From a virus (taxonomy: Duplodnaviria > Heunggongvirae > Uroviricota > Caudoviricetes), in IMG/VR virus record IMGVR_UViG_2579778753_000004: a stretch of DNA of 34,205 nt. The stretch is one strand, 5' to 3'. Each line of letters opens with the position of its first letter. The stretch's first letter is position 1. Under the pieces are notes generated by a model that was not told the DNA's origin, did not search any database, and worked only from the letters and a program-made list of their open reading frames with translations. The position numbers and the translations under genes are program-made. Shown one piece after another: positions 1 through 33,514 of the stretch.

Positions 1-188
1 AATTTTGCGACCACGGTGCTTAACAAACTGGCGGAGAAGCTGGCCAAAGACCAGAACGGCGCAGATATTCCTGACCCGGCGCTCTTTGTCAAAAACCTTG
101 GTTTGGGAGATGCGAGCGGATACGTTGGTAGGCTGCTAAAAATACAGGTATTCACTGCCAGCGGGACAGTGACAAAAACGCCAGGCGC
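1..188. repeat. Left copy of inverted repeat (IR-L), coding, truncated by window edge
   Basis: Positions 1-188 are the exact reverse complement of 1681-1868 by hand alignment; identity stops at 189/1680. Both copies encode the same peptide NFATTVLNKLAEKLAKDQNGADIPDPALFVKNLGLGDASGYVGRLLKIQVFTASGTVTKTPGA. Confidence 0.9.
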
Positions 189-771
189 AAAAAAATGGCG
201 AATTAAATGTCTCGGTGGGGGGGGCGGCAGTTCAGCTGCACCGGCAACGGGTAGTAACGAGGTTTCCGTGAGTAACGGGGGCGGCGCAGGGGCATATGCT
301 GAGGGCATTTATGACGTATCGTCAATAACAACGGCGTCAGTCGTCATCGGTTCAGGCGGTGCAGGAGGAACGGCGGATTCAATATACGGCGCTGACGGCG
401 GAGCTAGCTCAGTTGGTTCGTTTATTTCATCGCCCGGCGGGAAAGTTGGATTACCCGCCGGCCCGGCAAACCCACCATTTCAGCCCGTGGCCAATACTAA
501 CAGCGATGGCCCGACTGGGTGGAATATTGTCGGCTCATCTGGAGCAGGGGCAGAACCAGCCGTAGCTGTTACATATAGCTATGCCGCTGGCTCGCGTGGT
601 TCAAATAGTATATTTGGGGTAGGCGGATCGATTCCTGCAATTAATGACCCGGCAAATCCCGGTGGGGGCTATGGTTCTGGAGCATCCGGCTGTTCGAATG
701 GCTCATCCCAACCAGCTAAATCAGGCGCAGCGGGACGCCCGGGAATCGTAATCATTGAGGAGCTGGCATAA
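1..771 (+). CDS. Alternative tail-fibre C-terminal module (silent orientation, 5'-partial, Gly-rich tip)
   Basis: Reading frame is open from position 1; the first 63 codons are the IR copy of the fibre constant region, then a unique Gly/Ser-rich C-terminus. No own start context; it would join the fibre N-terminus only after inversion. Confidence 0.6.
   Translation, partial: NFATTVLNKLAEKLAKDQNGADIPDPALFVKNLGLGDASGYVGRLLKIQVFTASGTVTKTPGAKKWRIKCLGGGGGSSAAPATGSNEVSVSNGGGAGAYAEGIYDVSSITTASVVIGSGGAGGTADSIYGADGGASSVGSFISSPGGKVGLPAGPANPPFQPVANTNSDGPTGWNIVGSSGAGAEPAVAVTYSYAAGSRGSNSIFGVGGSIPAINDPANPGGGYGSGASGCSNGSSQPAKSGAAGRPGIVIIEELA
85..110. other. Putative serine-invertase crossover site (hix/gix-like), left
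   Basis: TTTGTCAAAAACCTTGGTTTGGGAGA; its reverse complement shares the AAACCAAGGTTTTTGA core with hixL as I recall it (TTCTTGAAAACCAAGGTTTTTGATAA). Confidence 0.55.
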
Positions 772-953
772 TGAGTAATTATGCGCTAGTTAAAAATGGC
801 GTCGTTGAAAATGTTGTTGTATGGGATGGCACTGGAGACATTTTCGATGATTATATTACTGTGAATATTGACGACATATCGGCTGGTATCGACTGGACAT
901 ATGACGGAGAGGCATTTGCCCCTCCGCCAGAAATTACTCCGCAGGAGGCGTAG
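771..953 (+). CDS. Small protein coupled to the alternative fibre tip (putative cognate assembly chaperone)
   Basis: ATG overlaps the TAA of the upstream module (ATAATGA); 60 aa; converges on the 3' end of the minus-strand assembly gene. Confidence 0.4.
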   Translation: MSNYALVKNGVVENVVVWDGTGDIFDDYITVNIDDISAGIDWTYDGEAFAPPPEITPQEA

Positions 954-1365
954 GCCATTCAATATCTGGCGCACCGGAAGTATCGACCAGCTCCAGTGCG
1001 TCCAGATAATCCAGCCACAAATTATATTGCACCAGTTCCTCACCTTTCAGGCGACCAATCGCCGCTTTACCAGGCCATTGCTTACTGTTTATGTATTCGT
1101 TGACCTGATTAATCAATTGCTGCTTTTTCAGTTCGGCTGCGGCAATTTGTTCCTCATGAGTTGGCGGTGGAATATCAATCCATGCAGGCATTCCGTCGAT
1201 GACACCTCTGTATTTTCCTTCTGGTGCTTCCTTCATAAATTCGGCAGCAACAGTGTCGTCAATTTCGATTCCATCATCGGGCCATTCGCCGGATTCCTGA
1301 TAAGCGATTTTAAGCTCCACAGGGAAAAACGCATTTTTATCGGCACTGAAAATATATTTCTGCAT
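934..1365 (-). CDS. Tail fibre assembly protein (lambda Tfa / Mu U family)
   Basis: C-terminus ...LVDTSGAPDIEWPTPPAE resembles the conserved Tfa C-terminus; sits immediately downstream of the fibre gene. Confidence 0.75.
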   Translation of the reverse strand: MQKYIFSADKNAFFPVELKIAYQESGEWPDDGIEIDDTVAAEFMKEAPEGKYRGVIDGMPAWIDIPPPTHEEQIAAAELKKQQLINQVNEYINSKQWPGKAAIGRLKGEELVQYNLWLDYLDALELVDTSGAPDIEWPTPPAE

Positions 1366-1367
1366 TT

Positions 1368-2258
1368 CTACCGTCCTATCGAAATATAACTGAATCTGTA
1401 TTGCTGTGAGATATCACTGGTTGCCACACGCCACGCTGAATTACTGATATGTTCAAAATTTACAGACAAAACCTGCGGGGCAGGAATCGACGGGTCTGAC
1501 TGAACGGCATCAGACATAACACTGACTGAAACCATCGGCTGATTAGGGAATGGTATAGGGAAGTGTCCACTGATAAAGCGGGTCGTGTTTCCTGCAAAAG
1601 TGCCAAACTGAACAATATATCCACCTGGTAGCCTGAACCATCCCGAACCAGAAGCGAATGCTCCCATATCCGGTATCTGAGCGCCTGGCGTTTTTGTCAC
1701 TGTCCCGCTGGCAGTGAATACCTGTATTTTTAGCAGCCTACCAACGTATCCGCTCGCATCTCCCAAACCAAGGTTTTTGACAAAGAGCGCCGGGTCAGGA
1801 ATATCTGCGCCGTTCTGGTCTTTGGCCAGCTTCTCCGCCAGTTTGTTAAGCACCGTGGTCGCAAAATTCGGATCGTTACCGAGGGCATCCGCCAGCTCTT
1901 TAAGCGTATCCAGCGTCTCAGGGGCGCTGCCTGCAAGCGCTGCAAGTGCTTTGGCCACAAACTCAGTCGTCGCCAGCTTCTTGCTGTTATCGCTATTTGC
2001 AGGCGTGGGCGCTGTTGGCGTGCCGGTGAATGTCGGGCTGGCTTTCGGTGCGTACTGGGTATGCGGGTCTGCTGCCGCGATGTGTTTCGCAAGATCAGAA
2101 CCGCCTTTTTCAACCTGTTGCTTCAGGTACAGCGTGCGGCTGGCCAGTTGTTTACCCTGACGGTTAGAAATTCCGTCAGGCCCACCCAGAACGGGGTCAG
2201 AGACCTCAATCTGGTAGATGCCTTCTTCCCACTGCGGGGTTTCAGGTAGGTTTGCCAT
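1368..2258 (-). CDS. Tail fibre protein, currently expressed variant
   Basis: 296 aa; contains the TLDTLKELADALGNDPNFATT motif typical of fibre shafts; spans IR-R and a unique C-terminal tip. Confidence 0.8.
   Translation of the reverse strand: MANLPETPQWEEGIYQIEVSDPVLGGPDGISNRQGKQLASRTLYLKQQVEKGGSDLAKHIAAADPHTQYAPKASPTFTGTPTAPTPANSDNSKKLATTEFVAKALAALAGSAPETLDTLKELADALGNDPNFATTVLNKLAEKLAKDQNGADIPDPALFVKNLGLGDASGYVGRLLKIQVFTASGTVTKTPGAQIPDMGAFASGSGWFRLPGGYIVQFGTFAGNTTRFISGHFPIPFPNQPMVSVSVMSDAVQSDPSIPAPQVLSVNFEHISNSAWRVATSDISQQYRFSYISIGR
1681..1868. repeat. Right copy of inverted repeat (IR-R), inside the expressed tail-fibre gene
   Basis: Reverse complement of 1-188; may extend past 1868 because the partner is cut by the window start. 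Confidence 0.9.
1759..1784. other. Putative serine-invertase crossover site (hix/gix-like), right
   Basis: TCTCCCAAACCAAGGTTTTTGACAAA, the inverted partner of 85-110, lying inside IR-R. Confidence 0.55.
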
Positions 2259-32337: not shown

Positions 32338-32549
32338 TGGCTGAATCAATTGTATGTGCCTTGTTCTGGTATGGTCTCGTGGGGTGGTGTACTGCTGAAC
32401 TGCACCGCCGTTCAGGGTTTTACTCACGTTACAGCGGTACCGGACACTGGATCAGTTGGGCCGTTATGTTCCTGTGCTGGCCTGTCGCGCTTCCTTTATA
32501 TGTCGACTATATCGGTGGCGCAGGTAAAAGGAGTGGCAATGATGACTAA
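32334..32549 (+). CDS. Small membrane protein (two predicted transmembrane helices)
   Basis: 71 aa; ATGA overlap with the upstream gene; RBS GGGGAG. Confidence 0.5.
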   Translation: MMAESIVCALFWYGLVGWCTAELHRRSGFYSRYSGTGHWISWAVMFLCWPVALPLYVDYIGGAGKRSGNDD

Positions 32550-32967
32550 GCAGCGTCTTATTCAACTCATTCATATTGCCCGCAGCGACCTCCAGATGGA
32601 TGAGGACACCTACCGCCAGATGCTACAGGGGCTGACCGGCAAAGCCTCAACCAAAGGGATGGATACCCCACAACTAAACCGCGTGCTGGAATCAATGAAA
32701 AAGAAAGGCTTTCGCATTAAGCCTGCCGGGAAAGCCAAGTCCGGCTTACCGCTCGACAGCCATCCGCAGTCAAAGAAAATCCGTGCGCTATGGCTTGAAA
32801 TGGCTGCCGCAGGCATCGTCCGTGACAGTTCAGAGCAGGCGCTGGCGCTGTGGGTTAAACGGGAAACCGGCATCAGCGCGTTACGCTGGCTCAGCAATGA
32901 GCAGGCAAGTAGCGTGATTGAGAAACTGAAGAAGTGGCAGCGCAGAGCTGCGGGAGTGAAGCAATGA
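32539..32967 (+). CDS. gemA: GemA-like protein (Mu gp16 family)
   Basis: Start at ATGATG 32539 with RBS AAAGGAG; ...LIQLIHIARSDLQMDEDTYRQML... aligns with Mu GemA as I recall it. Confidence 0.65.
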   Translation: MMTKQRLIQLIHIARSDLQMDEDTYRQMLQGLTGKASTKGMDTPQLNRVLESMKKKGFRIKPAGKAKSGLPLDSHPQSKKIRALWLEMAAAGIVRDSSEQALALWVKRETGISALRWLSNEQASSVIEKLKKWQRRAAGVKQ

Positions 32968-33353
32968 GCGACCTGAATCAGTTTCGTAGTAAAGGGCCGG
33001 AACTGTTGGTGGAACTGGCACAGCATACCTCTGAGACTGTCCGCGAGATTATTGATATCGAACCCGCAGTTGCCGACCAGATTGGTCAGGCCGTCGCGAA
33101 CCGCATGATGCAGGTCTGGGGTGGGCAAAACGTCTATTTTCCGATGGGCATGGTCTGGAAGGTCAGCCAGCGCGACCGGGAAATTTTCCTGGAGTTTGAC
33201 GGGCGCAACCATCACGAACTGGCCCGCAAATTTGGTGTTTCACTACAGTGGGTTTACAGCGTGGTGAAGCGGGTCAGAAAAGAAGAACTGGATCGGATGC
33301 AGGGCAAACTGTTTGATGGCGAACCTGATGCCGATACAGGGAAAAAGGAGTAA
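32964..33353 (+). CDS. mor: Mor/C-family transcriptional activator
   Basis: ...VWGGQNVYFPMG...FDGRNHHELARKFGVSLQWVYSVVKR... aligns with Mu Mor (GGQ.VYIP ... FNGRN..EL...YGV....VY) from memory; ATGA overlap with gemA. Confidence 0.75.
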   Translation: MSDLNQFRSKGPELLVELAQHTSETVREIIDIEPAVADQIGQAVANRMMQVWGGQNVYFPMGMVWKVSQRDREIFLEFDGRNHHELARKFGVSLQWVYSVVKRVRKEELDRMQGKLFDGEPDADTGKKE

Positions 33354-33443
33354 TATCTGCAATCAGGCTGGTGCGAGTTCTGTTTTTTTCGGGCCGGTCT
33401 GATTTTCACATACTGTAAGGTTATTGCATATTCCATCCAGTCT

Positions 33444-33514
33444 CTTCCCATGTTGACCCAGTACTTCCCATAATTATCTCACTTATCCCCTGTCATTTAT
33501 CTCAAGTCTAATCA
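33444..33514. repeat. Prophage right terminus with subterminal direct repeats (putative transposase-binding sites)
   Basis: CTTCCCAT at 33444 and 33464 (20-bp period); TTATCTC at 33475 and 33498 (23-bp period); element ends ...AATCA at 33514. Confidence 0.55.

Follow-up and report, generated by a model that had tools for sequence, protein, structure and literature searches.

The stretch of DNA analysed here, IMG/VR record IMGVR_UViG_2579778753_000004 (34,205 nucleotides; hereafter the window), is, as judged by its gene content and gene order, a BcepMu-type transposable (Mu-like) myovirus prophage of Escherichia coli that has transposed into a malic-enzyme gene. Its gene map, built from the open reading frame (ORF) listing, Pfam and PHROGs scans, and comparison with annotated relatives, consists of a continuous minus-strand late block (approximately 934–23385), a control island (23386–25518) and a plus-strand early operon (25519–33353). 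The joint explanation that accounts best for these data, to which we assign a probability of about 80%, is a BcepMu-type prophage with a normal two-arm map, in which a single activator protein, Mor, would drive four late promoters. The element is common in E. coli, and the two-arm map is the ordinary, already known organization of the BcepMu-type lineage, having featured in published descriptions of BcepMu-like and B3-like transposable phages since 2004–2009. An earlier sequence-only reading of the window, which had set its layout against that of phage Mu, overstated only how remarkable that layout is; it is textbook for the BcepMu-like group. The additions made here to the known layout are small: a candidate Mor box, a predicted four-promoter regulon and a set of collinear relatives.

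Two-arm organization and kinship with BcepMu

The early operon runs rightward to the prophage end at position 33514, as the sequence-only reading had described. In the late arm the genes are ordered holin, lysis, terminase, portal, head, sheath/tube, tape measure, baseplate, tail fibre and fibre assembly. That all late genes point leftward, as was also claimed, holds for the late block (934–23385) but not for the silent alternative fibre ORFs (1–953), which lie on the plus strand. The candidate repressor of the control island is encoded on the late strand, divergent from the early operon.

All 48 proteins of the window were compared by tblastn with BcepMu and with Mu. Matches to BcepMu were found for 35 of the 48, in the same order on both arms and in mirror orientation, with identities of 27–79% that include the transposase (68%, gp9), the ATPase (60%, gp8), Mor (53%), TerL (62%) and the sheath (79%). 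Only six of the 48 matched Mu (TerL, portal, F, G, GemA and Mor), and no hit to Mu A or B was obtained. On the annotated BcepMu map, Mor (gp1) is found at the end, the transposase is gp9, the interface repressor is gp17, and the lysis genes are gp21–24. The published description places genes 1–13 on the lower strand and genes 17–52 on the upper strand with lysogeny control at the interface, followed by the lysis cassette, heads and P2-like tails, and assigns the transposase to the Tn552-IS1604 type (Lavigne et al. 2009, PMC2771037). Its kin include phiE255 and SalMu/PhotoMu/ChromoMu-type prophages (Summer et al. 2004 as cited in PMC2771037, PMC3417384). The resemblance to BcepMu-like phages that the sequence-only reading had put forward is thus borne out by the mirror-image map, the 35 shared proteins and the published two-cluster description.

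Reading inward from the terminal Mor, both elements carry GemA, DUF3164, an ExeA-like ATPase, an rve transposase of Tn552/IS1604 type, DUF3102 and a helix–turn–helix (HTH) regulator, with a repressor at the interface. A holin and an SLT endolysin open the late arm of each, followed by Mu-like TerS, TerL, portal, F and G and a P2-like tail. Both have a single Mor/C gene, TG...CA ends with similar terminal repeats, and the dyad TAAAGCnGATTAAAA upstream of the holin and of the protease. They differ in the central island, which holds Dam and a 177-amino acid ORF in the window and gp18–20 in BcepMu, in the acyltransferase gene at the tail end, which the window lacks, and in the invertible fibre segment and Gin-like recombinase of the window's lineage. 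Features diagnostic of BcepMu-like organization were found in the window and its close relatives: the transposase and ATPase types, opposite-strand clusters, a single terminal Mor, a lysis-first late cluster, TG...CA termini, varied insertion sites and a short target duplication.

At the nucleotide level, similarity to BcepMu falls short of that expected within a genus, as megablast aligned only approximately 1.5 kb (sheath/tube) at 75% identity. Nor does the window show the hallmarks of Muvirus, namely MuA/MuB, a collinear map with a left-end repressor, and a Mor and C pair. Records with the same gene order include those of Phi06_2974 B (99.6–99.9% identity), Klebsiella phage KP12 (94–97%) and PhiKM (approximately 86%). 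On these alignments the window belongs with KP12, PhiKM and Phi06_2974 B to a separate enterobacterial lineage and not to the genus Bcepmuvirus. For annotation, the appropriate label is a BcepMu-type transposable prophage and not a rearranged Mu.

A single Mor and four candidate late promoters

Mor lies 160 bp from the right prophage end (33514), and its start is 9.5 kb away from the first late-promoter candidate (23453), close to the 10 kb that had been estimated from the letters of the sequence. It is 53% identical to BcepMu gp1 and 30% identical to Mu Mor, and its segment WGGQNVYFPMG aligns with LGGGQVYIPRG of Mu Mor. Proteins of the Mor/C family have an acidic N-terminal half, a GG..Y.P.G β-strand linker and a C-terminal HTH (PMC2582627); the window protein is likewise small, has the conserved linker and matches PF08765.

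A second activator of this family was sought with phmmer at maximum sensitivity, using Mu Mor, Mu C, BcepMu gp1 and the window Mor as queries against the full set of 868 six-frame ORFs no shorter than 25 amino acids, including those of the left 4 kb of a complete relative. The sole match was the ORF at 32922–33350 (Mor), the next best having E ≥ 0.56, and no second Mor/C gene was found among these ORFs. With a 10-member family profile, Mu gave two matches, and the window, BcepMu, KP12 and the complete prophage of E. coli CFS3292 gave one apiece. The four single-sequence searches and the family profile, which covered six-frame ORFs of the window, KP12, BcepMu and a complete relative with its left end, revealed no second Mor/C paralogue, and the sequence-only reading was right on this point. 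The part of the prophage to the left of the window, which might have held a second early block or a C homologue, contains only tail-fibre and invertase genes in complete relatives; none of these additional left-end genes is an early gene or an activator.

Four candidate late promoters (P1–P4), one in each late-arm intergenic gap, share a TTAA-N6-TTAA dyad followed at exactly 23 nt by a hexamer of the form nAnnCT. Exact TTAA-N6-TTAA dyads occur three times in the 34 kb, all in late-arm gaps, against 0.18 expected, and none of 100 shuffled sequences reached three. The strict dyad-N23-nAnnCT architecture was found four times on the late strand and not at all on the other (mean 0.15 and maximum 2 in 300 dinucleotide shuffles). 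A scan with the TerL protein, taking one genome per species, yielded 75 related loci (1.37 Mb), in which a looser form of the architecture gave 105 late-strand matches and 25 on the opposite strand. Most of the late-strand matches (91 of 105) lie no more than 150 nt upstream of a homologue of the holin (30), the protease (34) or the tail chaperone (27), and the architecture extends to Pandoraea, Zoogloea and Burkholderia.

Alignment of 18 enterobacterial relatives revealed conserved islands upstream of the holin (TTAACGCnGTTTAAAATCC) and of the protease (CTAAAGCAGATTAAAAGC) in partly unrelated surroundings; the P1 dyad block is kept even where the sequence farther upstream is unrelated. BcepMu has TAAAGCCGATTAAAAG upstream of both holin and protease, and its counterpart of the P2 site is GTAAAGCCGATTAA. 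When the Mu plus strand was scanned in the same way, the only match was in Pm (GTAAAGCCGGTTAA, 23 nt, TATCCT, at 9174), within the annotated Mor-activated middle promoter (9163–9233). Promoters that depend on Mor or C possess a −10 hexamer but lack one at −35, and have instead an imperfect dyad, centred near −43.5, that overlaps or adjoins the −35 region (PMC4287176, PMC2582627); the Mor dyad is at −51 to −36, centred on −43.5 (PMC4287176), and that of C is similarly placed (PMC2582627). The predicted architecture of P1–P4 fits this pattern, with a dyad-to-hexamer spacing equal to that of Mu Pm.

In the mechanism that we propose, a central switch, made up of the HTH repressor and a sigma-70 early promoter, would fire the early operon rightward to the genome end. 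The lysis/head/tail block points the opposite way, the early arm being inverted relative to Mu and to collinear relatives. Mor would act as a diffusible protein, making its 9.5-kb distance and opposite orientation immaterial, and would directly turn on four late units: that from lysis to G (through P1), that from protease to tube (P2), that from chaperone to gpV (P3) and that from gpW to fibre (P4). Activation of all four by Mor alone is proposed because there is no C paralogue. Each late promoter would carry the dyad at approximately −50 to −37 and a weak −10 hexamer (nAnnCT) without a −35 hexamer, which is the geometry of Mor at Mu Pm. The cascade would thus have two tiers (early, then late) in place of Mu's three (early, then Mor, then C, then late), and terminator-like hairpins upstream of P1 and downstream of Mor would keep the two arms transcriptionally separate. 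Such a four-promoter Mor regulon is a testable account of how a Mor/C-family phage could work without C.

Several points weigh against this assignment. The hexamers are weak, agreeing with the consensus at 3–4 of 6 positions, and the start sites, −10 hexamers and Mor binding are predictions throughout. The P2 dyad has one mismatch (CTAA), a fifth match to the architecture at 10043 falls inside a coding region and presumably arose by chance, and in some distant relatives no match reached the threshold (e.g. locus L037 and the holin of locus L031). The centre of the Mu Pm dyad comes to −43.5 if the annotated feature spans −61 to +10, which assumes a +1 at 9224 deduced from the feature limits. 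A loose scan of Mu also gave four minus-strand matches, so specificity rests on position and conservation and not on the pattern alone. Finally, expression of Dam and of the 177-amino acid ORF is left without explanation.

An unlikely alternative is that a second activator, not homologous to Mor/C, performs a C-like step and that three tiers are kept, the candidates being the 177-amino acid ORF and the early HTH regulators at 25519–26045. The ORF does occupy the relative position of C, being encoded on the late strand just upstream of the lysis genes, the early operon opens with two small HTH proteins, and the link between Mor and the four dyads is itself one that we infer. However, among the 75 related loci only 15 were seen to carry the ORF, and BcepMu lacks a homologue of it, whereas conservation of the dyad architecture extends from E. 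coli to Burkholderia, and strong terminator-like hairpins separate the ORF from P1. Moreover, both the dyad and the spacing are those of the known Mor site at Mu Pm, and in collinear relatives a dyad lies directly after mor. Activation by Mor alone is accordingly preferred to a second activator.

TAAAAT/TAAAAG (within the conserved block) and CACTATT were considered as −10 elements and rejected, as only dyad-N23-nAnnCT is common to the four gaps, BcepMu and Mu Pm. At P4 the hexamer is 6 nt from the ATG of gpW (4273), and the same arrangement is seen at BcepMu gp49 (approximately 30811–30825) and in KP12; the gpW mRNA may be leaderless, or the start codon may have been mis-called.

Two groups of hairpins accompany the candidate promoters. 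The pair at 23480–23560 folds with a stability that none of 200 shuffled sequences equalled, and is probably a terminator that shields the late arm from repressor-side transcription; the hairpin and T-run upstream of P3 also look like a terminator delimiting a unit. The second group consists of minus-strand hairpins whose stems take in the Shine–Dalgarno region, just upstream of the holin start (23385–23420; CTGTCTCC...GGAGAC) and of the protease start (15983–16016; CTGTCCC...GGGACAG). The protease-leader stem shows compensatory changes among relatives, where Photorhabdus, for instance, has CTGCCTC...GAGGCAG. With transcription starting at the predicted sites, the transcript would begin with the 5′ arm of the hairpin. 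These leader hairpins may exert translational control over the first genes of the late operons.

Comparison with Mu, B3-like phages and collinear relatives

The Mu map is collinear, with mor and C directly upstream of lys, and differs from the window as the sequence-only reading had stated. Mu and the window are both transposable myoviruses with random insertion, and share a GemA–Mor pair closing the early operon, homologous TerL, portal, F and G, an invertible tail-fibre segment and a G–protease intergenic gap at the genome midpoint; the Mor-type dyad and spacing at Pm equal those of the window's candidate late promoters. Unlike the window, Mu has its repressor at the left end with the rest of the genome running rightward, and paralogous Mor and C acting in turn in a three-tier cascade. 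Its MuA transposase is unrelated, its tail module is its own where that of the window is P2-like, and it has mom/com where the window has dam. The target duplication made by Mu is 5 bp, against 6 bp for the window's type of prophage.

An early operon inverted in the same way has been described for B3-like phages (PMC5977238; PMC8705779). In B3-like Pseudomonas phages, as in the window, Mor lies within approximately 150–460 nt of a genome end and is directed outward, gemA is likewise close to the end, and a Tn552-related transposase is present (PMC5977238, PMC8705779); in B3-like genomes the Mor homologue was located at nt 148–457, transcribed outward. Unlike the window, these phages are siphoviruses with non-contractile tails and unrelated structural modules, and their Mor is approximately 40% identical.

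The transposase was on the strand opposite to TerL at 38 of the related loci, which come from many genera in Enterobacterales and Burkholderiales. A different arrangement was found at locus L030, in a Burkholderiaceae metagenome-assembled genome (MAG), where the HTH protein, DUF3102, transposase (68%), ATPase (57%), GemA (50%), Mor (50%), holin and TerL (73%) are all encoded on one strand. There Mor ends approximately 270 bp before the holin, giving a Mu-like collinear map (L030 1–7400), and loci in an Oxalobacter MAG (L059) and a Hydrogenophilaceae MAG (L065; 6583–7200) resemble it. Across the three, the transposase is 65–68%, Mor 32–50% and TerL 61–73% identical to those of the window, and the ATPase, GemA and holin are also shared; unlike in the window, the early arm is oriented as the late arm, and Mor is directly upstream of the holin as in Mu. 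In L030 and L065 a dyad is present between mor and holin. As read from these gene orders, it is an inversion of the early arm that distinguishes the two-arm from the collinear map, and a single family can pass from one layout to the other. With collinear and inverted relatives side by side, early-arm orientation is evolutionarily labile in the family, which speaks against a functional constraint on where mor stands relative to the late genes.

A broader reading, towards which we lean only slightly, is that BcepMu-type phages share a two-tier cascade in which one Mor-type activator directly drives the four late operons through a conserved TTAA-N6-TTAA box at approximately −43, that in Mu this box and spacing serve the middle promoter only, and that the C tier of Mu would have been added in that lineage once mor had been duplicated. 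The early arm would then be free to flip because all regulation acts in trans and terminators insulate the arms.

Prophage ends, host site and other features

Position 33514 is the exact right end of the prophage; homology to other prophages ceases there, and the host flank beyond it differs across strains. The repeated terminal motifs GAGATAAAT/GCGATAAAT resemble those at the ends of BcepMu and at the right end of Mu. The termini are of the type TG...CA, with ...CA at the right end in the window and TG... at the left end in two relatives, L003 and L004; the window stops short of the left junction of its own copy. The malic-enzyme host flank was found in 5425 of 5426 E. coli genomes. In the window this gene is broken after approximately 230 codons, and the open frame runs 31 nt into the prophage end before a stop (33483–34205).

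Insertion sites vary by strain and include gadC, csgC, narU, ycaL and the malic-enzyme gene. Exact 6-bp target duplications were found for two independent insertions, CGTTGC in gadC and ATTGTC in csgC (L003 4096–4101 and 38564–38569; L004 at approximately 4160 and L082). Transposable-phage behaviour is concluded from the TG...CA termini, the differing insertion sites and the 6-bp target duplications. The segment from GemA through Mor to the right end was matched in 640 of 5426 complete E. coli genomes (approximately 12%), mostly at 80–90% identity, with 196 of the 640 matching at least 80% of the segment. Several diverged sublineages of the BcepMu-type prophage appear to circulate in E. coli.

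That the element is a decayed, rearranged cryptic prophage whose layout has no functional meaning is very improbable. The window lacks the left end, and one alternative Tfa ORF is short (771–953); against this, the core ORFs are all intact and tightly packed, identity to records deposited as phages (KP12 and Phi06_2974 B) is 94–99.9%, different sites across strains with 6-bp target duplications point to recent transposition, and the missing left end is accounted for by a window or contig boundary within the inverted repeat. The sequence-only reading had itself raised the possibility that a collinear, Mu-like prophage was inverted during assembly or scaffolding. This could draw on the start of the window exactly at a 188-nt inverted repeat (the repeats of the element can break assemblies) and on the existence of collinear family members (L030, L059, L065), but can be dismissed, since window positions 1759–33514 match the complete chromosome of E. 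coli CFS3292, where the prophage splits gadC, as one collinear high-scoring segment pair of 31,756 bp (99.98%), the same order recurs in KM389306, the phage genomes KP12, PhiKM and BcepMu and the 38 independent loci, and the repressor/early-promoter and Dam/holin regions are compact, conserved and without repeats at their borders.

The coordinates of all features are collected in Table 1.

Table 1. Features of the prophage and its host flank, in window coordinates from left to right
Feature	Position	Strand	Remarks
Invertible tail-fibre segment	1–1868		Cut by window start; perfect 188-nt inverted repeats at 1–188 and 1681–1868
Silent alternative fibre C-terminus	1–771	+	In invertible segment
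Small ORF, short alternative Tfa	771–953	+	In invertible segment
Proposed late unit 4	934–4273	-	Matches BcepMu gp49–52; PGAP names in CFS3292
Tail-fibre assembly	934–1365	-	Unit 4
Tail fibre	1368–2258	-	Unit 4
gpI-like	2261–2839	-	Unit 4
gpJ-like	2832–3935	-	Unit 4
gpW-like	3926–4273	-	Unit 4
P4, candidate late promoter	4280–4322	-	Dyad TTAAACGCCTTTAA (4322–4309), hexamer AATACT (4285–4280); upstream of gpW
Proposed late unit 3	4328–10068	-	Chaperone, tape measure, gpU-like, gpX-like, gpD-like, gpV-like
gpV-like	4328–4840	-	Unit 3
Tape measure	7093–9558	-	Unit 3
Tail assembly chaperone	9754–10068	-	Unit 3; Phage_TAC_7
P3, candidate late promoter	10096–10165	-	Terminator-like hairpin (AGGGGCTTCGGCCCCT and T-run), then dyad TTAATCCCCTTTAA (10138–10125), hexamer CATACT (10101–10096)
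Proposed late unit 2	10167–15983	-	Head protease/scaffold to small ORF, including head–tail connectors
Small ORF	10167–10448	-	Unit 2
Tube	10451–10972	-	Unit 2
Sheath	10972–12399	-	Unit 2; sheath/tube DNA 75% identical to BcepMu
Major capsid protein	13919–14872	-	Unit 2
Head protease/scaffold	14886–15983	-	Unit 2; phrog_976, head maturation protease
P2, candidate late promoter	16014–16056	-	Dyad CTAAAGCAGATTAA (16056–16043), hexamer CAGACT (16019–16014); upstream of protease ATG (15983)
Conserved palindromic element	16126–16141		TTTATAAAGGCTTTAC, core CCTTTATAAAGG (16130–16141); gap between G and protease gene
Proposed late unit 1	16198–23385	-	Holin to Mu G-like; also Rz-like/lipoprotein genes and two small ORFs
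Mu G-like	16198–16656	-	Unit 1
Mu F-like	16659–17480	-	Unit 1
Portal	17461–18957	-	Unit 1
TerL	18957–20480	-	Unit 1
TerS	20477–21025	-	Unit 1
SLT endolysin	22298–23035	-	Unit 1
Holin	23035–23385	-	Unit 1; ATG at 23385
P1, candidate late promoter	23411–23453	-	Dyad TTAACGCTGTTTAA (23453–23440), hexamer GATGCT (23416–23411); upstream of holin
Pair of strong hairpins, with a U-rich run after the second	23480–23560	-	Between divergent Dam and holin; −43.9 kcal/mol, z = −6.3
Dam-type N6-adenine DNA methyltransferase	23633–24403	+	PF02086, E 1e-27; divergent from late operon
177-amino acid ORF	24451–24984	-	phrog_10002; accessory
cI/Cro-type HTH repressor candidate	25020–25430	-	HTH_3 E 5e-12, Phage_CI_repr E 3e-6
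Early-promoter candidate, sigma-70	25447–25474	+	TTGACA-16-TACAAT, 11/12 consensus positions; in 88-bp repressor/early intergenic region
Early operon	25519–33353	+	Also small ORFs, DUF3164, DUF2786/DUF7168; GemA and Mor at end
Small HTH protein	25519–25743	+
HTH regulator	25740–26045	+
DUF3102	26055–26963	+
DDE transposase (Tn552-type)	26967–28736	+	Pfam rve
ATPase, MuB analogue	28747–29913	+	Pfam AAA_22
GemA	32539–32967	+
Mor/C-family transcription activator	32964–33353	+	PF08765 E 1e-42, 107/107 profile positions; last early gene
Terminator-like hairpin and U-run	33361–33404	+	3′ of Mor
Right prophage end	33440–33514		Terminates ...TCTCAAGTCTAATCA; repeated GAGATAA(A/T)T motifs, putative transposase-binding sites
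Host flank	33515–34205	-	N-terminal part of malic-enzyme gene cut by prophage; PF00390, PF03949

Rfam and tRNA scans of the window gave no matches. Within late unit 1, the Rz-like gene is a weak match (27% identity to BcepMu gp23). In the control island, the 245-bp spacer between dam and holin (23386–23632) is taken up by the P1 box and the strong hairpin pair, and a search of it for a dam promoter of dyad or sigma-70 type recognized none; in several relatives, unrelated sequence replaces the whole dam side right up to the P1 box. PHROGs and Pfam scans assigned no function to the 177-amino acid ORF, which had no Pfam hit. In the early operon, two small overlapping ORFs (33 and 51 amino acids) occupy a 283-bp stretch (31078–31349) that is unannotated in CFS3292 and absent from KP12, and the 98-amino acid ORF that follows matches only the C-terminal half of NTP pyrophosphohydrolase families.

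The 16-bp element TTTATAAAGGCTTTAC, which separates G from the protease gene, has the same sequence in BcepMu (L002 approximately 18738–18753) as in the window, and its palindromic core is invariant in 18 relatives, the flanking intergenic region being divergent. It stands at 0.49–0.51 of the prophage length, where Mu has its strong gyrase site; comparison of the G–protease gap with that site revealed no sequence similarity. The core CCTTTATAAAGG was rejected as a Mor site, being present in a single copy in the window and at a distance from the P2 dyad that varies among relatives.

At the left, position 1 lies inside the 188-nt inverted repeat, the exact start of the window at one repeat arm suggests a contig break at the repeat, and the prophage left end is not in the window. 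Relatives have approximately 1.5–2.7 kb more at this side, comprising an alternative fibre, Tfa, a Gin-like recombinase and attL, and their corresponding fibre segments are at 4179–6808 (L003) and 4229–6422 (L004). Pfam matches in the fibre segment were Gly_rich_2, Caudo_TAP and Gp53-like_C, and both fibre ORFs share 25 amino acids with Mu S at the boundary of the G segment, the crossover site. BcepMu was reported to be without a fibre inversion system (PMC2771037); unlike BcepMu, the enterobacterial lineage has acquired or retained fibre inversion.

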